Source: Caldisericia bacterium (GTDB taxonomy: Bacteria > Caldisericota > Caldisericia > JAAYUI01). From it: a stretch of 64,000 bases of DNA. The position numbers and the translations under genes were made by a program. Numbering within the stretch: the stretch's first letter is position 1; every line of letters begins with the position of its first letter. The notes beneath the pieces are model-generated. The model was not told the origin of the DNA and ran no database searches. It was given only the letters and a program-made list of their open reading frames with translations. Shown here piece by piece: positions 2,122 through 40,668 of this stretch. The stretch is taken from the NCBI GenBank assembly GCA_963674785.1, contig OY771555.1, forward strand, positions 144,851-208,850, written 5' to 3'.

Positions 2122-4122
2122 TTACCTCCTGGAGGGAGACTCCTCCATCACATTGATTCTAGTATGATTTATTTCTGAATATGGTGTATATTTTTTCCCA
2201 CCACTCTCATAGAAACGTGAGTAAAACTCAAGGAAAACCAATCTTGCAGGATGCACAAAACTTCCAATTATGTTTAGGAAGAAATTGAAAAGGTGACCTA
2301 CAAAAAGTATTAAGATCGCAAAGATGATACCAAAACCCTTCAACCCCATCATCGCGGCGATTGAATTAAAAGCTTGTCCAACAATAGATGTCGTGAGTCC
2401 AAGAGCCAAAAGCCTTGAGTAACTCATAACATCTGATAAAAAACCGGTCGTACCGTATCCACCAAGTACACCATAAAGCGATATTACACCTACACCAATT
2501 CTTCCACCGACCGATTTTGCATCTCTTCCCTGTGAAAAAATAAGGAACAACGCACCGACACCAATCAGAATATACATTGTCATCATGAATACGGATGATG
2601 ATGCTCCAGGTGTCAGGAAATCGATTGCAAACATTGTTAGACCTGACAGGAAAACAATCCAACCAAGGGAATCGGTTACCGCATACAACCACTCACCATT
2701 CTTGATCTGCAGATATGCCTTATACAGAATCCCAAGAAACTGAGTTCCAATTCCAATATAGAGTGTCAGAACAAAGAACGGTATTGTTTTGATTAGTGGA
2801 TCAATTCCTATTTTCACAAGATCGTTTCTAAGACTAACAAGGGGTTCCCATGTAATAATTGTTCCAACCATGTCTCCACCCCAGGCACCAGTTAGAGCAC
2901 CAATGATGGTTACATATACACCACAGGTAATGAACGTTCCAAAAAACTTCTTTGCGCTTTCTTCATGTTTGTAGATTCTTCCAAACCAAAGTGAAAAGCC
3001 AATGAGCATGAGTCCATACAAAACATCACCAAAGCAGAATCCAAAAAAGATTGGGAAGATTATTGAAATTATAAAAGTACTATCAATTCCTCTGTAACCC
3101 GGTAATCCATACATTGCAGAGAGCATTTCAAAGTTTTTTGAGTATCTATTATTCGAAAGCTCTACAGGTGGATTATCCTCGTCAGTTATGTCTGTGATCT
3201 GAAGATGATATTTTTCAAGATTCTGTGAGATTTTGTTTTTGAAACCTTCAGCTTTTTGGGCAGGAAGATAGCCAACAAAAACTGAGGCATACATGGAATC
3301 CAACCCTAGATTTTTCACCCTCTCAGATTCTATATCGTTTTCGAGGTTATCAATGTTTACAATCAGAGCTAATTTATGTTTGTGAAAATCTTTTTTTAGG
3401 AGCTTAAGAATCTCTTTTTGCTCTGATTTGAGCCTTTCAATTTCAGCATCTATTTTCTCGACTTGTTCTTTTGGCGTGAGCTCCGAACTTGGAATCGGAA
3501 GAGATTCAAAACCATATTTTGAAAGTTCGAGTTTGACATCATCGCACTTCTCATGCTTACATGAAATTAGGACAACCCCTGAACTATAAACGGTTACTGC
3601 AACCTCATCCTCTGAATTGAGTTCTGAGATCTTTCCCAGATTTCTTCTCGGTATTTGACCAAGAATAAATGCAATGTGTTCCGTGTTTTCAATTCTTGTT
3701 GGGACAGGAAGGAATTTGTATCTTGAAATCAGATGTTTTTCATTCGAAATCTTTGAAATTGAATCTTTAAGTTTGTTATACTTTTGAGAATACTCATTCA
3801 CAGATGAAATAAATTCATGGAAATCAATACTATTTTTTAGTTCAACATATTTTTCAGGTGTAAGTCTTGGTCTTGGCCAGGAAAAATTAGATATAAATGG
3901 TAGCTTTTCTGGAAAAAAACTATCGAGATTTTCAAGAGCTTTTTTTGCTCTGTCAAGTCTCAGAGAAAACTCATTTTCACTAGAATCAGTGAGTTTTCCT
4001 TCTTTTCCAGTCTCAACTTTTCTAAAGTGCAAAAGGTTTTGTTTTTTGACAAGGTCTAAAGCTTCCCTTGCAGACCTCGAAGGAACTGCAAGCGTCACCT
4101 TCTTCATAGCAACTATTGCCAT
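2122..4122 (-). CDS. atpI: A/V-type ATP synthase subunit I (a-subunit)
   Basis: 666 aa; hydrophilic coiled-coil N-terminal half and polytopic C-terminal half; N-terminus MAIVAMKKVTL typical of subunit I. Confidence 0.9.
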   Translation of the reverse strand: MAIVAMKKVTLAVPSRSAREALDLVKKQNLLHFRKVETGKEGKLTDSSENEFSLRLDRAKKALENLDSFFPEKLPFISNFSWPRPRLTPEKYVELKNSIDFHEFISSVNEYSQKYNKLKDSISKISNEKHLISRYKFLPVPTRIENTEHIAFILGQIPRRNLGKISELNSEDEVAVTVYSSGVVLISCKHEKCDDVKLELSKYGFESLPIPSSELTPKEQVEKIDAEIERLKSEQKEILKLLKKDFHKHKLALIVNIDNLENDIESERVKNLGLDSMYASVFVGYLPAQKAEGFKNKISQNLEKYHLQITDITDEDNPPVELSNNRYSKNFEMLSAMYGLPGYRGIDSTFIISIIFPIFFGFCFGDVLYGLMLIGFSLWFGRIYKHEESAKKFFGTFITCGVYVTIIGALTGAWGGDMVGTIITWEPLVSLRNDLVKIGIDPLIKTIPFFVLTLYIGIGTQFLGILYKAYLQIKNGEWLYAVTDSLGWIVFLSGLTMFAIDFLTPGASSSVFMMTMYILIGVGALFLIFSQGRDAKSVGGRIGVGVISLYGVLGGYGTTGFLSDVMSYSRLLALGLTTSIVGQAFNSIAAMMGLKGFGIIFAILILFVGHLFNFFLNIIGSFVHPARLVFLEFYSRFYESGGKKYTPYSEINHTRINVMEESPSRR

Positions 4123-20173: not shown

Positions 20174-20419
20174 CTAATTTCGATCTTTCCAGGCCGGAAG
20201 TTTAGCAAGATTCTTGATCGCCATCTCTCTTGCAGCGGCTTCGTCAAAGCCTTGTGACTGAACTAAAAAACCAGTCATACCAGCAACACATTCTTCATAA
20301 CTTTTCATTGAGCCATCTTCTCTTGCACAGTAGAGGCAATAGTCCTTTGACTCATCTCCAAGAGCAAAATCCTCCTTCTTCTCCATCGGCATTCCGCAAC
20401 AAATACAAATTTTACTCAT
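20174..20419 (-). CDS. Zinc-ribbon domain protein
   Basis: 81 aa; CICCGMPM...CLYCA Cys pairs. Its TAG stop directly abuts the ATG of the ATL-like gene. Confidence 0.6.
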   Translation of the reverse strand: MSKICICCGMPMEKKEDFALGDESKDYCLYCAREDGSMKSYEECVAGMTGFLVQSQGFDEAAAREMAIKNLAKLPAWKDRN

Positions 20420-21017
20420 CTTTCCAGTTCCTTTCTGAAATCAGATTCATATAGTTATCAACAAGTTCATATCCTCTTTTTTTAAGTAATGACCCTTCTA
20501 CACAATAAAATCTTTTATTCTGAAGATAGTGATGAATAAGCCCAATCCAGGTTGTAAAAAGAAAGCTCATGGGCATTCTTTTTATTAAACCTTTTTCCAT
20601 TTCGGTTTTTGCGGCACTATACATTGAGTGAGAAATCGCGGAATGAATAGAAACAACACTTACCTGTACATCCTCGGGCAAGGTGTTTAGTTCAGAAATC
20701 AACCTTGCATAAAGGTCTTCATACTCAGATAAAGTTGCAAGATGTGTTTTTAGTACAGTTCTTATACCCATATCCGCATCAATATCCGCCCTCATTTTCC
20801 TTGTGACACGCATACCAAAATCATGCATTACGGTAACAAGTAATTCATCGCGAGTTGGAAAATGCAAAAAAACCGTTCCGTGCGAAACGCCTGCAGTATT
20901 TGCAATATCGATCGTTCTAGCTCCACTTATCCCATCAAGCTCAAAGTGTTTCATTGCGGAATCAATAAGCTTCCTATGAGTATCTTCACGTTTTTCTTTT
21001 CTAGATTTTGCGATCAT
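20412..21017 (-). CDS. TetR/AcrR family transcriptional regulator
   Basis: HTH ARTIDIANTAGVSHGTVFLHFPTRDEL. The ORF-track N-terminus (WARQDSNLRPLPCEGNALPTEPP) is antisense translation of tRNA-Val, so start moved to MIAKSRKEK (ATG 21015-21017). Confidence 0.8.
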   Translation of the reverse strand: MIAKSRKEKREDTHRKLIDSAMKHFELDGISGARTIDIANTAGVSHGTVFLHFPTRDELLVTVMHDFGMRVTRKMRADIDADMGIRTVLKTHLATLSEYEDLYARLISELNTLPEDVQVSVVSIHSAISHSMYSAAKTEMEKGLIKRMPMSFLFTTWIGLIHHYLQNKRFYCVEGSLLKKRGYELVDNYMNLISERNWKDE

Positions 21018-21133
21018 ATCTTTTAAACTGAGTTCAGACTCACTGAGTTTTGACTCATAATATGCCGAAACATCAACATTGTCAAGTTCAACTGTTGACT
21101 TGTGAATACGTAACAATAATATATTAAACATGT

Positions 21134-21209
21134 GGGCGGGTGGCTCAGTTGGTAGAGCATTTCCTTCACACGGAAGAGGTCGCAGGTTCGAGTCCTGTCT
21201 CGCCCACCA
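21134..21209 (+). tRNA. tRNA-Val (anticodon CAC), CCA encoded
   Basis: GGGCGGGTGGCTCAGTTGGTAGAGCATTTCCTTCACACGGAAGAGGTCGCAGGTTCGAGTCCTGTCTCGCCCACCA folds as cloverleaf: 7-bp acceptor, D arm GCTC/GAGC, anticodon loop TTCACAC, T loop TTCGAGT. Confidence 0.9.
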
Positions 21210-21243
21210 ATAAGTGCTCAAAAGAGATTAAAGGGGTGCAGTT

Positions 21244-24301: not shown

Positions 24302-27300
24302 TTGTTTAATTCAAGATTCAATATAATCAGAAAACTCGGGGAAGGAGGAATGGGTGAGGTGTATCTTGCCCACGATACCAGAACTGGGTCTGATGTTGCT
24401 CTCAAGATCGCAAACCTTGAGAGTTCAACTGCTAGAGAGAGATTCTTACGTGAAATTGAGATTCTTTCAAGTATTTCACATGAAAACATTGTTGACTACA
24501 TAGACAATGGGATCAATGGAAATACTCTCTGGTATGAAATGGAATATATTCCCGGACTCCAGTTAATCCACTGGTTTAAGGGACAAAGCAATATTGATTT
24601 TAAAAGTCTTGCAAAAATCTTTTCTAAGATTGCATCAGCCTTATCTACTCTTCATACAAATGGGATTATTCACCGCGACATAAAACCCGATAATATTTTG
24701 GTTTGTAATGGGGAACCAATAATCGTTGATTTTGGTGTGGCACATCTAATCGATAAGGGAGATCGAGCAAAGCTTACGAGAGCAGGTTCTGTTGTAGGTA
24801 CAATCCAGTATATGTCTCCAGAACAAGTAACGGGAAGCCATATCGATGGGCGCTCAGACCTTCACTCACTTGGTGTGATCATGTATGAATTATTAACTGG
24901 AGAACACCCATACGAAGCAACCACTCTGCCGGGAATGATCTCAAGAATCCTTCAAGAAAGACCAATAAAACCATCAAGTCTAAACCCAGATATACCCGAC
25001 AACCTTGAAATGATAATACTCAAGCTTCTGGAGAAAAACCCTGACTTGAGGTACAAATCAGCCGACGAACTCGAAACAGCTCTTCTGAGGTATTGTAGTG
25101 GAGGGGTTCTGACTGAGGCTGTCAATCTTTCACCACTAAAGACTAATGCTTCAAGAGATATTCCATTCGTTGGAAGAGATAAAGAACTAAATCAGCTCGA
25201 ACTCTTACTTCACTCAGCAATCTCAGGAAGAGGACAGGCTATTGAAATCTTTGGTGAAGATGGTTTAGGAAAATCAAGATTGATTGAGGAATTCAGAGCA
25301 CAGGCTCTTGGACACCTTTCAAAATTCCTATTGTGTTCACCACAAATAGAGGGAAGCTCAAGACTAGCAATATCATCAATTCTCGACCAACTAGCTGATT
25401 ATGAAATCAATTTTGACAACAGGATTATAAAAAAACATCCACACATGATTAGAAGTCTTTCTGCAAAATTTGCAGACTCTGTCGGAATAGAAGAAAAGCC
25501 GCCTAACATCGGAGATTCAAAAGATATCCCAAACGTTGTTGCTGAAATAATAATCAATGCCTTCCCAGAAATCCCATCTATTTATGTTTTTGAAGATGGA
25601 ATTGATAGTCTTACATTTGAAATCGCAACAGAGATTTCAAAAAAAATTGCAGATAGAAAAATAGTTGTGTGTTTTGCGACAGAAAATGAGTTAAGCAAAA
25701 CGATAGCAGAAAAAAAAGGCTTATCAGGGCAAGCAAATTTTTCAAAACTAATTCTTAAACCACTTCAAAAAAATGAAATTGACGCGCTTTCAAGAGCTAT
25801 CCTTGGCAGAGATTTATCCGAACCAGAAATGGATAAGATCTTTGCCAGTTCAAACGGAATGCCAAATGTTGCAATCCAGCTTCTCTCAAATATGCGTGAG
25901 GGTAGTAGGACAGTCTCACTCACATCTCTACCTGAAAATGTAAACAGCATTTATCTTGAAAAAATCTCAAAACTTGGAGGGGAGACAAAACAACTTATTG
26001 AAGTGATGTCTCTTTTGAAGAAACCAATTCCAATCGGTCTATTGAGTCCAATTTCATCTCTTGAAAAAGTGGATTTTGATCTTGCGTTTGAAACTCTTGA
26101 TTCAATTGGATTCATTAAAGAAAAAAACATAGGCAGAGAACTTGTTGTAGAACTTGCAACAGCTGATTTGAAAAAGATAGTCTGTGAAGAACTGAAAAAA
26201 GAAAAAGCAAAAGAATACCATAATCGAATCGCTTCAACTCTTGAAATCTACTACTCAGACACAAAAGATCAGGACATAAAAAAACGTATAGCAGAACACT
26301 ATGTTGAAGCTGAAGAATTTGATAAATCATCAGAGCTATATTTATCAATATTCAGTTATTACAACTCACATGGGAATTCAAAAAATGCAATTGATGCGAT
26401 TAATGAACTTGAAAGAAACTTTGAGAAAATAACCAAAAAATCTCTGATTATAAATTCTGTGTACTATTTCCTTATCAATTTTCCACTAACAAACCAAATG
26501 GAATTGTTTGAAAAATACAAGTTAATTGGTTTGCAACTATTAGAGAAAAATGACCTACCTGGTTACACAGTTTTTTCGTATTATTCTGCAATTGGTGGTG
26601 CATACTTAAGGCAAAGACTTCTACTTGAATCGAGAAAACACATTGATAAAGCAAGAACTCTATACGACCAGGTCGAAGACAGTCGAAAACTGGATTTAAA
26701 TATCCACGAAATTAATCAGGCAATTTTTGAAACAAACATTGAAACGCTCCGTGAGCTACTTGAAGAGCGAAAACGACTGCTTGAAAACACAAATGCTTCG
26801 GAGATTGACTGGATACCTTATTACAATAGTGAAGCAATATATTTCTCTGAAATTGGAAGCCATGCAAACGCCGTAGAAAACTTTAAAAAATCGCTTTCGA
26901 TTGCCAAAAGACTCAACCATAAAAGGCAAGAACTTAGGGCGCTCACAAATCTTGGAACTGCATGCGCTCACGCTGATCTTAATTTCAAAGCGATCGATTA
27001 TTATAAACAGGCTCTAAAACTTGCAAAAGATCTTACTCTTGAAAACATTCATGCCCTAATCTTAAATGACATGGCAAACCTTTATCTAAATGAAGGTAAA
27101 ACCGTAGAATACCGAAATATATTACTTGAATACAAAAGACTGTATGAGGATAAGGAAATCACAAAGGCTTTGATTGATTGGACATATAATTATTCACACC
27201 TCAAGGTTTTAGAAAATGATTTTGATGAAGCAGAAAACATCTTATCAAAAATGAAAAACAGGGTAATTGAGTCAAACAGAAGTTTCTGGCTTCGCGAAGT

Positions 27301-27919
27301 CCTATATTATGAGGCACTGTGCACATTTGATAAAAACAATTTTAGAAGAGCAAAACTTCTGTTTTTACAACTCCTTGACCTTTTCAAGATTGATAAATTA
27401 GAGGACACCTTAACTCAGCTTTTCATATCAAATATTCATCTTGCCCACATATATGTCATCGAAGGCGAACTTGATGAAGCCGAAGAACACTACCAGAAAG
27501 CTTATTCTCTCTGCAGGAGTTACAAACAAGATATTCTTGAAAATAACCTCTTTTTTGCTGAAGCCCATATTGAGTTTGCAAAATCCATAAAAAAAGGCAG
27601 CTTTGGATTCAAAGAGTTTTTTGATGAAAGCTCATGGAGAACCTCATACAACATTTTGATGCAGTTATCCAAAAAGTGTGAACACAAAAAATATACTATG
27701 TCAATTCTTCCAACAAGTGCTACAGAGCTTTTCGCAAAACTCGTTATCCTCAGAATAAAAAACGACAAGAAACTCCGGACAATTGAAAGAAGACAGATTT
27801 TTGAGCAGGCTGTAAATCAAATCGAACTATTATTGAAAAAATATTCAGAACACAATTTTTCTTACAAACGTGATGAAATCATTGAGCTTAATAACGAGCT
27901 TATAATGCTTCTCGAATAG
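24302..27919 (+). CDS. Ser/Thr protein kinase fused to STAND-type NTPase and TPR repeats
   Basis: 1205 aa; kinase motifs GEGGMGEVY, HRDIKPDNIL, DFGVA; P-loop GEDGLGKSRL; C-terminal TPR-like helical repeats. Confidence 0.85.
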   Translation: MFNSRFNIIRKLGEGGMGEVYLAHDTRTGSDVALKIANLESSTARERFLREIEILSSISHENIVDYIDNGINGNTLWYEMEYIPGLQLIHWFKGQSNIDFKSLAKIFSKIASALSTLHTNGIIHRDIKPDNILVCNGEPIIVDFGVAHLIDKGDRAKLTRAGSVVGTIQYMSPEQVTGSHIDGRSDLHSLGVIMYELLTGEHPYEATTLPGMISRILQERPIKPSSLNPDIPDNLEMIILKLLEKNPDLRYKSADELETALLRYCSGGVLTEAVNLSPLKTNASRDIPFVGRDKELNQLELLLHSAISGRGQAIEIFGEDGLGKSRLIEEFRAQALGHLSKFLLCSPQIEGSSRLAISSILDQLADYEINFDNRIIKKHPHMIRSLSAKFADSVGIEEKPPNIGDSKDIPNVVAEIIINAFPEIPSIYVFEDGIDSLTFEIATEISKKIADRKIVVCFATENELSKTIAEKKGLSGQANFSKLILKPLQKNEIDALSRAILGRDLSEPEMDKIFASSNGMPNVAIQLLSNMREGSRTVSLTSLPENVNSIYLEKISKLGGETKQLIEVMSLLKKPIPIGLLSPISSLEKVDFDLAFETLDSIGFIKEKNIGRELVVELATADLKKIVCEELKKEKAKEYHNRIASTLEIYYSDTKDQDIKKRIAEHYVEAEEFDKSSELYLSIFSYYNSHGNSKNAIDAINELERNFEKITKKSLIINSVYYFLINFPLTNQMELFEKYKLIGLQLLEKNDLPGYTVFSYYSAIGGAYLRQRLLLESRKHIDKARTLYDQVEDSRKLDLNIHEINQAIFETNIETLRELLEERKRLLENTNASEIDWIPYYNSEAIYFSEIGSHANAVENFKKSLSIAKRLNHKRQELRALTNLGTACAHADLNFKAIDYYKQALKLAKDLTLENIHALILNDMANLYLNEGKTVEYRNILLEYKRLYEDKEITKALIDWTYNYSHLKVLENDFDEAENILSKMKNRVIESNRSFWLREVLYYEALCTFDKNNFRRAKLLFLQLLDLFKIDKLEDTLTQLFISNIHLAHIYVIEGELDEAEEHYQKAYSLCRSYKQDILENNLFFAEAHIEFAKSIKKGSFGFKEFFDESSWRTSYNILMQLSKKCEHKKYTMSILPTSATELFAKLVILRIKNDKKLRTIERRQIFEQAVNQIELLLKKYSEHNFSYKRDEIIELNNELIMLLE

Positions 27920-28035
27920 ACCATAAATAAAAAAGTAAACATTGATTCTTGAAGAAGCCACATTGTTGTTGTATATTCATGGCACTTATGAAGGAGATTG
28001 TAATGACAACTTACAGATCGCTTTGAGCAAACAAA

Positions 28036-28091
28036 GGCAGATGGTTCATCTGCCAAGCCCAGACGGTCTGTTGCTTCATTTTGACCGTCTG
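28036..28091 (+). promoter_or_regulatory. Structured 5' leader (two hairpins) upstream of the ABC-selD operon
   Basis: GGCAGATG-GTT-CATCTGCC (8-bp stem) and CAGACGGTC-N14-GACCGTCTG (9-bp stem), 27-80 nt upstream of AGGAGG-N7-ATG(28118); no U-tract follows. Function unknown. Confidence 0.3.
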
Positions 28092-28117
28092 AAAACTTAG
28101 ACTTAGGAGGTCATTTT

Positions 28118-29281
28118 ATGAAGCGTTTCGTTACATTTGCACTTATTCTTTTCCTCGCACTTGGAGTCTTTGTCTCGTGTGGTGCTGAAAAAAAGGTGGA
28201 TACAGAACCGACACCAGCAGACGTCACACCAGCAGAACTCCCTCTTTTGAGAGTGGGACACGTCAATCAGGATCATCACCTTGCACTCTACGTCGCAGCA
28301 CTAAAAGGCGAATTCTTTAAGGATCAAGGTGTCTGGATGACAGAGATCAAACCTAAAGAAAGATACACACTCCACACAGAAAATGGAGCTATCGCTGAGG
28401 TTCAACTTGTCAAATCTAAAGGTGGTTCAGAGATGACAAACAACCTCCTTGCAGGTCTTTTTGATATTGGCTTTGGTGGAGTTCCTGCAGTTATGAGTGT
28501 TGTTGATAAAGGAAAAGATGTCAGGATTCTGATGCCTTTGCAAAACGCTGGCGACCAGCTCATCGTAAAAAAAGATATGCCAGTCGAAAACTGGGAAGAG
28601 TTTGTAGAATACGTAAAAAATAACGAAACACAGCTGAAACTCGGATACAAAGCCCCAACTGCAGTTCAATACATCGTTGCTCAAAAGGCATTTACAGAAG
28701 TTGGAATCACACAAACAGAAGACCCAACAAATACAGATGCAATGGTTCTTTGGATCAATCAAAAGGGTCAAAATAACATGACCACAAATCTGGCTGCAGG
28801 TCAAGTTGATGGGTTTGTAGCAAATCAACCAACACCGGCACAAGCGATCATATCTGATGTAGGAAAATTTATCACTGAACTTTCTGTATTGCCACCAGAT
28901 GGAATGTGGAACCATCACCCATGCTGTATGGTTTGCAGCAATGAAAAGGTCAAAACAGAATACCCAGAGGAAACAAAACAGTTCCTTAAACTCATCATGC
29001 TTGCAACAGACCACATAAATGACGACATGGATGATGCAATCGAAATTGCCTACGAATTCCTCGGACAAAAAGAAGGGGTTGAACACTTATCCATTCCAAC
29101 TGTATACTACAACTGCGATGACGATGAAGTTTGGAGAGGTGGAGTTGCAACATGGGCAGTTGTTATGAATGAAATCGGAAAATATACAGGAGAACTAAAG
29201 GATATCAACGATGAAAGAGCAGTTGATCTCTGTGTTGATTTCACATTCCTTCACGAACTTCAAAAGGAGTTAGGAAAATAG
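28118..29281 (+). CDS. ABC transporter substrate-binding lipoprotein (NMT1/SsuA/ThiY-like)
   Basis: 387 aa; lipobox FVSC; periplasmic-binding fold resemblance; unusual WNHHPCCMVCSN Cys/His cluster. Confidence 0.8.
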   Translation: MKRFVTFALILFLALGVFVSCGAEKKVDTEPTPADVTPAELPLLRVGHVNQDHHLALYVAALKGEFFKDQGVWMTEIKPKERYTLHTENGAIAEVQLVKSKGGSEMTNNLLAGLFDIGFGGVPAVMSVVDKGKDVRILMPLQNAGDQLIVKKDMPVENWEEFVEYVKNNETQLKLGYKAPTAVQYIVAQKAFTEVGITQTEDPTNTDAMVLWINQKGQNNMTTNLAAGQVDGFVANQPTPAQAIISDVGKFITELSVLPPDGMWNHHPCCMVCSNEKVKTEYPEETKQFLKLIMLATDHINDDMDDAIEIAYEFLGQKEGVEHLSIPTVYYNCDDDEVWRGGVATWAVVMNEIGKYTGELKDINDERAVDLCVDFTFLHELQKELGK

Positions 29282-29313: not shown

Positions 29314-30123
29314 GTGGGTGGAGCAATTGTTCTACCCCTGCTTCTTTTTCTTGTTTGGGATTACAGTGCTGCAAGACTTGGCTCATCAACTCTGCTTCCC
29401 AGAGTATCCGATGTTTTTGATGTGGTTTTGCATCCCACAGAAGACCTAATCAGACAAGGCACCCTGCTCTTCCATGTCTATGTTTCATCGATTCGGGTAT
29501 TGATGGGTTTTGTGATAGGATCGTTGCTTGCCATAGTTCTTGGAATGATAATGGGTTTATCAGACAAAGTAAGGCATTTTGTCACACCATTCATCGAGAT
29601 ACTAAGACCGCTTTGTCCTGTTGCCTGGATTCCCTTCGCGATAATTATCTTCGGTGGAGCGACCCTTTCAAACACATTTGGATACAAGTTTACTGATTCG
29701 ATTCTTGATTATGTTCAGATTGCTCAACTATTCATTATCGCCTGGGGAGCATTCTTTCCGGTATTAATAAACACGATTGATGGCGTCAGTGGTGTCAGAA
29801 AAATATGGGTTGAAACAGCAAAAACGATGAACGCATCCAAACTACAGATTTGGTCAAAGGTGATTCTCCCCGCAAGCTTCCCATCCATTTTGACTGGGCT
29901 TAAGGTTGGACTTGGTATCAGCTGGATGGTTGTAATTGCAGCCGAGATGTTTCCGGGTCCTTCTGCTGGAATCGGGTATCTGATGATGGAGGCATACGCA
30001 CAAACTGAAATCCATATTCTCGCTGCCGGATTAATCACAGTTGGAATCATCGGAGCGCTTCTGAACGCCATTTTAGCGGTTATCCATAAAACCTTTGCGG
30101 GTTGGCAGGCGAAGGAACGATAA
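29314..30123 (+). CDS. ABC transporter permease (NitT/TauT-type)
   Basis: 269 aa; six TM segments with the binding-protein-dependent permease signature region. Confidence 0.85.
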   Translation: MGGAIVLPLLLFLVWDYSAARLGSSTLLPRVSDVFDVVLHPTEDLIRQGTLLFHVYVSSIRVLMGFVIGSLLAIVLGMIMGLSDKVRHFVTPFIEILRPLCPVAWIPFAIIIFGGATLSNTFGYKFTDSILDYVQIAQLFIIAWGAFFPVLINTIDGVSGVRKIWVETAKTMNASKLQIWSKVILPASFPSILTGLKVGLGISWMVVIAAEMFPGPSAGIGYLMMEAYAQTEIHILAAGLITVGIIGALLNAILAVIHKTFAGWQAKER

Positions 30124-30125
30124 AC

Positions 30126-30935
30126 ATGATAAAACTCAGTGCAATATATAAAGATTTTGATAAGCAGGAAGTTTTGAAAAACATCAATTTGAAATTCTTA
30201 CCTGGGGAGTTCAACTGTATTCTTGGGCCAACCGGTTGCGGAAAAACAACTCTTTTGAGAATTATTGCAGGGCTTCTAAAACCAGATTCAGGTGTAGTCA
30301 AAATCGAGAAGCCATCGATTTCAATGATTTTCCAACAGCAAACCCTTTACCCATGGAGAAATGCACTCTCAAATGTTTGTCTTCCACTTGAGTTCAAGGG
30401 ATACTCAAAAAAAGAACGCATCAAAATGGCAATGGCTAGATTAGCCGAGGTTGATGTAGCAGATGCAGCCAAAAAAAAGGTCTTCCAGCTATCTGGTGGA
30501 ATGCAGCAGAGAGTACAGATTGCAAGGGCTTTGGTCTCTAATCCATCAGTACTTCTTGCTGACGAACCATTCGGTTCACTTGATGAAAAAACAAGATACA
30601 AGCTTCAAAAAAAACTCAGAGAGATAACCCTTTCAAACAATACAACAACAGTTTTTGTAACTCATAATATTGAAGAGGCAATTTATCTTGGAGATAGAAT
30701 TATTGTAATTGGAAACAAAGGGGTTCAAGCAGATTTTGATCTTACCACCCCACACCCTAGAGACAGACTTTCGAAATGGTTTACAAGTAAAATTCTTGAA
30801 GTAAGAAATGTTTTTGAAACACTCATCGAAGATGAAGATACAACTGATGGGATTGAAAAAAGCGAAGAACCCGAAGAAAATAACGACCCATTCAAAACAA
30901 TGAAACTCGATGTGACAACAGATGAAAATGAATAA
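30126..30935 (+). CDS. ABC transporter ATP-binding protein
   Basis: Walker A GPTGCGKTT, signature LSGGMQQR, Walker B LLADEP. Start moved to ATG at 30126, right after the permease stop. Confidence 0.9.
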   Translation: MIKLSAIYKDFDKQEVLKNINLKFLPGEFNCILGPTGCGKTTLLRIIAGLLKPDSGVVKIEKPSISMIFQQQTLYPWRNALSNVCLPLEFKGYSKKERIKMAMARLAEVDVADAAKKKVFQLSGGMQQRVQIARALVSNPSVLLADEPFGSLDEKTRYKLQKKLREITLSNNTTTVFVTHNIEEAIYLGDRIIVIGNKGVQADFDLTTPHPRDRLSKWFTSKILEVRNVFETLIEDEDTTDGIEKSEEPEENNDPFKTMKLDVTTDENE

Positions 30936-31956
30936 AGAAGAAGAGTTCAGGCTTACAAAATTTGCCGGATGTGCTGGTTGAGAGAGTAAGTGGGGGCCGG
31001 GAGCTCTCAAGAAGTTACTCAGTGACTTACCTGTTTTTGAGTCACCAGATTTAATCACTCGTGACGTCAATAAAGCTGATGCTGCCGTTTATAAAATCAA
31101 TGATGATTTATACGGTATCTATACAATTGATGTTTTCTCACCAATTGTTGATGACCCTGAAGACTTTGGTGCAATCGCCTTTGCAAATTGTATTTCTGAT
31201 GTTTGCGCAATGGGTGGGACACCAGTTCTTGGGCTAAATGTTTGTATGTTCCCAGCAGCAGCTCCAGTTGAAAAACTCAACCTTATACTTAAGGGTGCAT
31301 CTGAGTCAGCCCAAAAAGAAGGGGTAATAATTGCCGGTGGACACACAACCAAAAATGATGAACTCCACTACGGACTCTCAGTTTATGGGACTGTAAAACC
31401 AGTAGATCTCAGGCTTTCATCAAATGCAAAACCCGGAGACCATATCATCCTTACAAAAGGACTCGGGACGGGTATCCTTTTTGCAGCAAAAGATAGGGCT
31501 GAGGGCGTTAACTGGCAATCAGCAATTGATTCGATGAAACAGACATCCGTTATTGCGTCAAAAATCCTAACCGAATTTGGATGCAGGTGTAGCACCGATA
31601 TTACAGGTTTTGGGTTTGTACCACATCTTCTTGAAGTACTCGAAGAGTCAAGGGTAGCAGCCAAAATTAATCCAGAATCTCTTCCGCTTCTTCCTGGCGT
31701 GATTGACTTTTCTAGATCATTTGCCTGTCCGGTTTTATCAACAAACATGGAACTTGCCGGGGCAAAGTTCGACTCTGGCAAACATGATCCTAAATGGATC
31801 AACATCTGCTTTGACGCCCAAACTTCTGGTGGCTTTATTGCATTTGTTTCAGAAGAAAATGCCGGTAAGTGTTTAGAAAAGCTTATTGATGCAGGATATC
31901 AGGCAGCAGATGTTGGTGAGGTTGCTGAGGGTGAGTCGAAAATTACATTGGTTTAG
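30922..31956 (+). CDS. selD: Selenophosphate synthetase with in-frame UGA (selenocysteine) at 30979-30981
   Basis: Frame of ORF 31210..31956 extended upstream: MKMNKEEEFRLTKFAGCAG[U]ESKWGPGALKKLL...DAAVYKI...SPIVDDPEDFGAIAFANCISDVCAMGG. UGA aligns with E. coli SelD Cys17 and the Lys three residues on with Lys20. Start ATG 30922 (or 30928) overlaps the ATPase stop. Confidence 0.85.
30982..31008 (+). promoter_or_regulatory. Candidate SECIS hairpin immediately 3' of the selD UGA
   Basis: GAGAGU-AAGUGGGGGCCGGGA-GCUCUC: 6-bp lower stem with G-rich apical region starting directly after UGA. Hand-folded, not energy-evaluated. Confidence 0.35.
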
Positions 31957-38746: not shown

Positions 38747-40280
<1,534 letters not shown>

Positions 40281-40668
40281 CATCTTATATATGTATTATA
40301 TATAAAGTGTTATATTAAATAACTAGGTGCTCTCACACCTATATTGTCATTCTGGAATTGCACCGGATATTGACTTTCATGTGTTAATTGCTATCTAGTT
40401 TTCAAACTACTACATTTCCCAGAAGTGAATCGAGGAAAGTTCAGTTTACCACAAAAGGTGACCACCGTCAAGCAGTTACCCTTTCGGCCAACGAGTAATG
40501 AAATATAACCCAAAAAGTTATAGAGTCAAGGAATGGATATAACATGAATAATATATTGCATTCATGGGACTTTCTTGAGAATCAAATTCAATAATCGAAA
40601 GGTTCCTTTAACCATCATTCGAAAGATTTTCACCAAAACGCTTCACATTCAACGATTAAATCGAATCC

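Follow-up and report, generated by a model that had tools for sequence, protein, structure and literature searches.

The leader and its operon

The element described here is the 5′ leader of an ATP-binding cassette (ABC) transporter operon in Caldisericia bacterium (GenBank assembly GCA_963674785.1, contig OY771555.1). The window, that is, the whole stretch of 64,000 nucleotides (nt) that was analysed, covers positions 144,851 to 208,850 of the forward strand of this contig, and coordinates are counted from its first letter. A gap of 198 nt separates a kinase gene, which ends with its stop codon at 27919, from the gene of a substrate-binding protein (SBP) that starts with ATG at 28118, and the gene order 3′ of the leader is SBP, permease, ABC ATPase and selD. 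The leader is very probably a conserved two-state element containing a short open reading frame (mini-ORF). The signal that it reads would be a UGA codon's recoding as selenocysteine (Sec), a proposal that comes close to an even chance. The features of the leader and the operon are the following.

27949-27977 (+): promoter-like TTGAAG-17-TATATT, a consensus match only, with the transcript start expected at ~27984
27991-27996 (+): mini-ORF Shine-Dalgarno (SD) sequence AAGGAG, 6 nt 5′ of the mini-ORF ATG
28003-28026 (+): mini-ORF ATG ACA ACT TAC AGA TCG CTT TGA (MTTYRSL-stop)
28013-28025 (+): segment 1, the 3′ end of the mini-ORF, pairing with segment 2 (28060-28071) in the minimum free energy (MFE) fold of the free RNA
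28024-28026 (+): invariant UGA, proposed to be read as stop, by release factor 2 (RF2), or as Sec
28027-28092 (+): read-through extension, 21 sense codons closed by TGA (28090-28092) where segment 3 ends
28036-28054 (+): hairpin 1, an 8-bp stem capped by loop GUU and located 9 nt 3′ of the UGA, resembling a selenocysteine insertion sequence (SECIS)
28060-28091 (+): hairpin 2, segment 2 (28060-28068) with segment 3 (28083-28091), the putative anti-sequestrator (the fold leaving the SD free)
28073-28079 (+): GCUUCAU in the loop of hairpin 2, which can pair with AUGAAGC (28118-28124) and so extend the sequestrator over the start codon
28082-28113 (+): sequestrator helix 3:4, segment 3 (28082-28092) with the SD-containing segment 4 (28103-28113)
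28105-28120 (+): SD AGGAGG (28105-28110) and ATG (28118-28120) of the SBP gene
28118-29281 (+): SBP gene (NMT1_2-type lipoprotein)
29314-30123 (+): permease gene
30102-30935 (+): ABC ATPase gene, the end of which overlaps the start of selD
30922-31956 (+): selD, with an in-frame Sec UGA at 30979-30981 and a hairpin at 30991-31009

Hairpin 1 (GGCAGATG-GTT-CATCTGCC) and hairpin 2 (CAGACGGTC-N14-GACCGTCTG) had been proposed in an initial annotation of the sequence, and both are found at the positions given there, between the kinase gene stop and the SBP ATG and 5′ of AGGAGG. Its judgement that they are unlikely to be simple terminators holds, as neither is followed by a U-tract on the plus strand. 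Likewise, its statement that no known riboswitch motif could be recognised agrees with the search of Rfam 15, which at gathering and permissive thresholds (E <= 10) returned only noise in the leader; matches in the whole window were confined to the 16S rRNA and one tRNA. What it overlooked are the UGA-ending mini-ORF just 5′ of hairpin 1 and the alternative helices that sequester the SD. The 151-nt leader folds better than 200 of 200 dinucleotide shuffles (z = -3.9).

Conservation and covariation of the leader

Related leaders were collected through genome, metagenome and exact-protein look-ups, which returned every SBP relative of at least 50% identity in the collections searched and yielded a sample of ten distinct leaders, which fall into three clades. 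The window clade comprises the window and the loci L004, L001, L002, L016, L003 (identical to L018) and L006; the second clade is L007 (with L022), from a Caldisericia bacterium, and the third consists of L010 and L017 (with L021). Protein-anchored scans identified three loci in genomes and three in metagenomes. The homologue search gave seven SBP clusters at 50% identity or more, and the leader is present in all seven; the closest SBP, at 93% identity, comes from a metagenome-assembled genome (MAG) of Caldisericia. At the more distant SBP loci L011, L013 and L015 (37-41% identity) no leader was found by eye or with a covariance model, and scanning the 64-kb window with covariance model R1 revealed no second copy. 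The -35 and -10 boxes of the window align with similar boxes in L001-L003.

The initial annotation had recommended that orthologous leaders be compared for compensatory changes, and this comparison shows both hairpins to be conserved and covarying across the ten leaders. In a MAFFT alignment of these leaders (A3), both-sided changes occur in 6 of the 8 pairs of hairpin 1 and in 5 of the 9 pairs of hairpin 2. Over the two hairpins, 91% of the alignment cells are paired, compared with 79% in column shuffles and 28-46% with slid partners, and a model-fitted alignment raises the paired fraction to 95%. Both hairpins and both competing helices (see below) covary across the three clades, down to an SBP identity of 50%. 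Because of this covariation, the aligned sequences indicate that the hairpins are real RNA structures under selection. Apart from GCUUUGAG, with which the mini-ORF ends, the GUU loop and the SD, no unpaired bases are conserved; AGGAGG is unchanged in 10/10 leaders, and the loop of hairpin 2 is wholly different between clades.

Competing helices and sequestration of the SD

The MFE fold of the free leader lacks hairpin 2 and has the 1:2 and 3:4 helices instead, and in the window no fold with hairpin 2 comes closer than ~13 kcal/mol to the stability of the free RNA. The two hairpins of the initial annotation therefore stand as conserved leader elements and not as independent stable structures, since hairpin 2 competes with other helices. 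Helix 1:2, which encloses hairpin 1, consists of 14 pairs with both-sided changes in six and 84% of cells paired. Helix 3:4 has 10 pairs, 95% of cells paired and both-sided changes in three, exemplified by GACC:GGUC becoming AACC:GGUU in L003. All of 1:2, 2:3 and 3:4 covary, and the leader thus has helices that are mutually exclusive, among them one that overlaps the leader ORF. The weakest element is the extension between the hairpin 2 loop and the start codon, with 69% of cells paired and within the close clade only.

RNAalifold retained hairpins 1 and 2 and added long-range pairing of segment 1 with the SD, which was set aside as a minor conformer (~3 kcal/mol vs ~14-17 for the fold with 1:2 and 3:4). 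A small local hairpin, GACUU-AGG-AGGUC with AGG(A) in its loop, can also form within AGACUUAGGAGGUC (28100-28113), a stretch that does not vary across the window clade; this hairpin is similar to a CsrA-type site, and through it the SD would be partly paired even in the fold with hairpin 2.

The influence of a ribosome on these folds was modelled by constrained folding, with a footprint covering positions -15 to +10 relative to the A-site. In the free RNA, four of five SD bases are paired in 9/10 leaders and two in L007. With the footprint placed at the UGA, hairpin 1 stays intact and hairpin 2 becomes the MFE structure in L001, L002, L016, L003, L007, L010 and L017; in the window, L004 and L006 it lies within 0.4-3.3 kcal/mol of the MFE. 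Clear release of the SD occurs in L010 and L017 only (1/5 SD bases paired). Moving the footprint to the read-through stop restores SD pairing in L007, L010 and L017.

The mini-ORF, its UGA and the read-through frame

All ten leaders have an in-frame ATG or GTG located 6-13 codons ahead of an identical CUU-UGA. The mini-ORF has start signals of its own in most of the window clade, where AAGGAG is retained in 6/7 leaders and followed 6-7 nt on by ATG or GTG; the spacer and the first codons are variable. In the exception, L003, AAAGGA takes its place, the motif reading AAAGGATGAG, and the ATG lies further downstream. An additional in-frame ATG at 27988 could lengthen the mini-ORF of the window to 12 codons. 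In L007, L010 and L017 the mini-ORF start, judged by eye, lies close behind a possible -10 box, and a consensus promoter scan found no promoter at these three starts.

The peptides encoded by the leaders include MTTYRSL, M(M)RVHGSL, MSKQRSL, MKNRSL, MCKQRSL, MKLFKSL, MKEQICLRLL and MNQQNFLRLL, which vary except for the C-terminus (R/K/G)(S/L)L. Alignment columns C37, T38, T39, T40, G41 and A42 are invariant and the codons ahead of them are variable. Among the long ORFs of the window, TAA, TGA and TAG are used 13, 13 and 12 times.

Beyond the UGA, frame 0 is open across hairpin 1 in 10/10 leaders. Read-through would add 21 codons in the window clade, where TGA or TAA closes the frame at the 3′ end of segment 3, and 8-11 codons in L007, L010 and L017, where the stop directly adjoins the 5′ edge of segment 2. 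Within the same region, stops interrupt the +1 and +2 frames in 6/10 cases, from five window-clade lineages; the +1 frame is closed after 1 codon in L017, 3 in L006, 7 in L002/L016 and 13 in L001. This test of frames is informative only across lineages, as all three frames are nearly open in the window alone. The read-through peptides (16-29 residues) are not conserved, and therefore it would be the act of translation, not its product, that is selected.

Hairpin 1 as a SECIS-like element

Bacterial SECIS elements are defined as stem-loops lying immediately 3′ of a Sec-encoding UGA (PMC9312934, PMC7026636). The leader has this arrangement: in 10/10 cases an in-frame UGA ends a putative ORF directly 5′ of hairpin 1, and the covarying stem of 7-8 bp follows after a short spacer of 8-10 nt. 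The loop is GUU or AGUU(U/A), with G60 and T61 nearly invariant and T62 (U62 in the RNA) invariant. Zhang and Gladyshev reportedly described, in 2005, a conserved G, usually within GU, at the start of the apical loop of bacterial SECIS elements, and hairpin 1 has such a G. It lies at +17 to +19 from the UGA across the leaders, at +18 in the window, and the corresponding G of selD is likewise at +18.

The selD of the operon is itself a selenoprotein gene (...FAGCAG-U-ESKWGPG...) with the only certain Sec codon of the window, and it offers a hairpin from the same operon for comparison: after a spacer of 9 nt, a 7-bp stem carries a 5-nt loop (UGGGGGC-CGGGA-GCUCUCA) that has G at its second position. 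The window, L001, L002, L004, L006 and L016, i.e., five lineages, share the stretch UGA-GAR-AGY-AAG-UGGGGGC-CGGGW-GCUCUCA at the nucleotide level. In the same five (window, L004, L001, L002/L016 and L006) the operon ends with the Sec-containing selD. ORF callers split selD at the UGA, so that only its C-terminal 248 residues are listed as an ORF, and in L004 gene callers put small minus-strand ORFs over the UGA region. When selenoprotein genes split by UGA were searched for in the window, selD alone was found. A scan for the leader motif itself (UGA, 8-10 nt, hairpin with GTT loop) produced extra matches at chance level, two weak ones vs 2.7 expected in shuffles.

Compared with known bacterial SECIS elements such as that of E. 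coli fdhF, the leader shares the in-frame UGA, the adjacent 3′ stem-loop, an ORF continuing through the hairpin and an apical-loop G-U at about +18 to +20 from the UGA. It differs in that the hairpin would act in a leader ORF of 7-12 codons with an unconserved read-through product, so that the recoding event itself would be the function.

A proposed Sec-recoding attenuator

The reading preferred here is translational attenuation operated by the ribosome: through recoding of the UGA the leader would sense Sec-tRNA(Sec) and SelB, and read-through would turn the operon off. This reading is offered tentatively, being slightly less probable than an even chance. A ribosome translating the short leader ORF would arrive at the invariant UGA, with hairpin 1, 9 nt further on, serving as a SECIS of the bacterial type. 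If Sec-tRNA(Sec)-SelB is scarce, the ribosome would dwell and terminate at the UGA and its footprint would mask segment 1. Segment 2 would then pair with segment 3 as hairpin 2, formed during transcription, leaving the SD and ATG accessible and the operon on. If Sec-tRNA(Sec)-SelB is plentiful, the UGA would be decoded as Sec, and the ribosome would melt hairpin 1 and move onto or past segment 2. Hairpin 2 would be lost, 1:2 pairing would form behind the ribosome, and segment 3 would pair with the SD, switching the operon off. In this way a putative selenium importer and SelD would both come under negative feedback.

Given the Sec model, negative feedback is considered clearly more probable than the opposite sign, which keeps a substantial minority share. 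This polarity is preferred because the read-through stop of L007, L010 and L017 would park the ribosome on segment 2, following the logic of the trp leader, and because trace-element uptake is, as a general rule, repressed by sufficiency. Possibly, the leader ORF would serve solely to present the UGA and the SECIS, translating 'stop or Sec' into 'operon on or off' and making the leader a dedicated selenium-status sensor; this extension is a little less probable still than the attenuator itself.

Several observations weigh against the Sec-recoding attenuator. With the footprint at the UGA, the leaders of the window, L004 and L006 slightly favour the sequestered fold, in which 4/5 SD bases are paired, and those of L001, L002, L016 and L003 keep 3/5 paired in a small local hairpin. 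SD exposure under this footprint is weak in most leaders, and these could enter the ON state only by being trapped kinetically during transcription. Hairpin 2 of L007 is so stable that the free RNA already has it, and SD pairing there is unchanged at two bases. The U and G of the UGA also take part in the helix between segments 1 and 2, and the ten leaders amount to only ~7 independent sequences, so that the invariance of the UGA and the openness of the frame are statistically weak. The loop of hairpin 1 (GUU) is unlike that of selD (CGGGA/U). No Rfam SECIS model matched the leader at E <= 10, which is weak evidence, as these models are short and clade-specific. In L003/L018, L007 and L010, selD is not adjacent, and every host of the leader is an uncultivated MAG. 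Only 12 nt separate the read-through stop from the SD in the window clade, an arrangement that may allow coupling or re-initiation and hence the opposite polarity. Finally, Sec insertion in E. coli is only ~40% efficient, which would limit the dynamic range of such a switch (PMC7026636).

Alternative explanations

The leader might instead be an attenuator that depends on the mini-ORF and does without Sec. Ribosome occupancy or termination at the stop codon would set the fold, reflecting RF2 activity, general translation capacity or a stalling peptide, and hairpin 1 would be a clamp joining segments 1 and 2. This explanation is built on the best-supported parts of the leader, the two-state architecture and the mini-ORF, and it can point to the enclosure of hairpin 1 by the 1:2 helix, to selD being unlinked in three lineages, and to the UGA bases lying in the 1:2 helix, from which their conservation could stem. 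However, it leaves unexplained why the UGA never varies when U:G pairs would tolerate change, why the 8-10 nt spacing and the GU loop match the Sec hairpin of selD, why the read-through frame is the sole open one, and why selD stands in the operon. In its stalling-peptide version, moreover, no known arrest motif would fit a peptide so short and so variable. An attenuator of this kind is considered unlikely, and still to be taken seriously.

Hairpin 1 could also be a SelB operator without recoding, bound by SelB with or without Sec-tRNA, with the UGA being incidental. The leader of E. coli selAB (PMC13449736) provides a precedent, and the SECIS-like geometry and conserved loop of hairpin 1 are compatible with this function. 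Nevertheless, both folds contain hairpin 1, and its distance from the SD is ~50 nt, compared with 3 nt in selAB, so that binding would have no obvious effect on SD access, and the mini-ORF, the mini-ORF SD and the in-frame UGA remain unexplained. Such an operator is rather improbable.

A metabolite or ion riboswitch, in which a small ligand such as the transporter substrate alters how much of the RNA adopts hairpin 2 and how much the sequestrator, was suggested by the initial annotation, which considered a 'ligand- or protein-responsive' leader plausible. Mutually exclusive folds and an output through SD sequestration are indeed features of translational riboswitches. The leader has, however, no Rfam match and no conserved junction or internal-loop core, and its unpaired regions are unconserved beyond the mini-ORF end, the 3-nt loop and the SD. 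A small-molecule aptamer is therefore quite improbable; the protein half of that proposal may hold, the proteins being the ribosome and SelB with Sec-tRNA, and the leader is most likely ribosome-operated, not ligand-operated.

CUU-UGA is also the shift site of prfB, and a programmed +1 frameshift of this type could account for its invariance; in L010 and L017 it is preceded 3 nt upstream by GAGG (UGAGG-UUG/UUA-CUU-UGA). The window clade has no SD-like stimulator, and the idea was dropped given that the +1 frame closes within 1-13 codons in L017, L006, L002/L016 and L001 and has no conserved end, which makes it very improbable. Chance structures are at odds with the covariation of both hairpins, and a minus-strand terminator, suggested by hairpin 1 being followed by TTTGTTTGCT on the minus strand of the window with a terminator-like score, fails on its T-rich tail not being conserved (the spacer of L001 is GTGGTTTTT) and on no gene converging on that strand, so that both are practically dismissed.

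The operon and its neighbourhood

The SBP has the residues P-C-C invariant and HPCC nearly invariant (consensus HPCCC) at positions 267-270 in 25 homologues of 33-80% identity, and the same homologues share a GHVxxDH motif at residues 47-54. Vicinal cysteines are unusual in ABC binding proteins, and the HPCC motif may be a selenium- or metal-binding site. The cysteines of the SBP recall those of SaoX and the CCCXC motif of THI5. A double-Cys motif occurs in the Sec-associated SaoX (bioRxiv 10.1101/2022.07.06.499078), and the SBP is like SaoX in having an invariant CC motif. The permease, ATPase and SBP are distant relatives of SaoP, SaoA and SaoX, which are their best or near-best NCBIfam matches. 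The differences from the SAO system are that the scores are far under the family cut-offs (156/295, 180/360 and 31/300), none of the three proteins contains Sec, and the operon has selD and not the other SAO genes. According to a 2024 paper, no dedicated selenium transporter is known (PMC11097638).

A further association with selenium is found at L011 (1-6759; also L012), where an SBP of 41% identity is encoded in the order selD, selB, tRNA(Sec) (3203-3298), DUF2490, SBP, permease and ATPase, followed by a Fer4_5 protein. This cluster is an independent tie of the transporter family to the Sec machinery, without the leader.

The ABC ATPase of the window has an acidic C-terminal tail of ~35 residues (...EDEDTTDGIEKSEEPEENNDPFKTMKLDVTTDENE), and the homologues of L007 and L010 (234-240 residues) are too short to have it. 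In the L010 lineage, which has no adjacent selD, a gene of the cysteine desulfurase family (L019 1711-2826, minus strand) lies ~7 kb 5′ of the leader; its second-best NCBIfam match is the selenocysteine lyase SclA, below the cut-off. A GatD gene, matched at the equivalog level (L010 2451-3830 = L019 8451-9830), lies divergently next to the leader of L010. GatD is subunit D of the Glu-tRNA(Gln) amidotransferase and is normally archaeal. An archaeal origin of L010 and L017, which would weigh against a SelB-type SECIS, was considered from this gene and dropped in view of a bacterial-type SMC protein scoring above the cut-off and an AraC-family regulator on the contig (L019 2961-6290 is listed with this observation). 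The presence of GatD beside the leader points to horizontal transfer or an unusual bacterial lineage.

Directly 5′ of the leader, a gene of ~1200 codons (Ser/Thr kinase, AAA_16, TPR) is syntenic in the window clade, with copies at 24302-27919 in the window (1205 residues), 182-3799 in L004, 1-3411 in L006 and 207-3800 in L018. It may have a second regulatory role for the operon or reflect plain synteny. Elsewhere, the window contains a complete 16S rRNA gene (38747-40282, minus strand) and a tRNA-Val(CAC) gene (21134-21209, plus strand); an ORF at 20412-21221 (minus strand) overlaps the latter, and its N-terminus is thus probably spurious.

Relation to known systems and significance

In trp, his and leu attenuation and in the translational attenuation of ermC and cat, the position of a ribosome on a leader ORF decides which fold is formed. 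The present leader is like these attenuators in that its ORF overlaps segment 1 of a set of 1:2, 2:3 and 3:4 helices, and like ermC in that its output would be SD sequestration. It is unlike leader-peptide attenuators in that it would sense whether a single UGA is read as stop or recoded, not stalling at sense codons or arrest induced by a drug or peptide, and unlike the trp type in having no intrinsic terminator, as no helix is followed by a U-tract on the plus strand.

In E. coli, SelB-GTP-Sec-tRNA represses translation of selAB through a SECIS-like hairpin in the 5′ untranslated region, 3 nt from the SD (Thanbichler and Bock 2002, as summarised in PMC13449736). Both systems have a leader with a SECIS-like hairpin ahead of an operon of selenium metabolism, and negative feedback from SelB-GTP-Sec-tRNA(Sec) would be common to them, the feedback being a proposal for the present leader. 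The selAB system differs in that SelB is the repressor and no UGA or leader ORF is involved; hairpin 1 does not abut the SD and ends 50 nt before it, following an in-frame UGA within a four-segment switch. In Treponema primitia, selenium controls fdhFSec via translation past its own UGA (PMC3892789). Here too, passage of the ribosome through UGA and SECIS would read selenium and alter downstream expression, with the difference that in T. primitia the UGA lies in the coding sequence of the enzyme itself and transcription elongation is affected, whereas the present UGA lies in a leader ORF and would act on a separate operon via the SD. None of these closest known systems combines a UGA-ended leader ORF, a SECIS-like hairpin and an SD-sequestering switch, and full-text literature searches returned no prior description of a Sec-recoding leader ORF. 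The leader may accordingly join attenuation with SECIS-based control, at odds that fall just short of even.

How bacteria sense selenium sufficiency has so far been largely unexplained. If the Sec-recoding attenuator is correct, the UGA/SECIS recoding step would itself be a regulatory sensor, and the leader would do for the 21st amino acid what the trp, his and leu leaders do for theirs, besides being the first cis-acting attenuator keyed to Sec-tRNA(Sec). The NMT1_2-type ABC system with its HPCC binding protein would then be a strong candidate for the first dedicated selenium ABC importer, and the leader would provide a compact, portable selenium-responsive element of ~140 nt. Even if the Sec step is wrong, a newly recognised two-state leader with a conserved mini-ORF, supported by covariation, is added to the regulatory elements of these bacteria.

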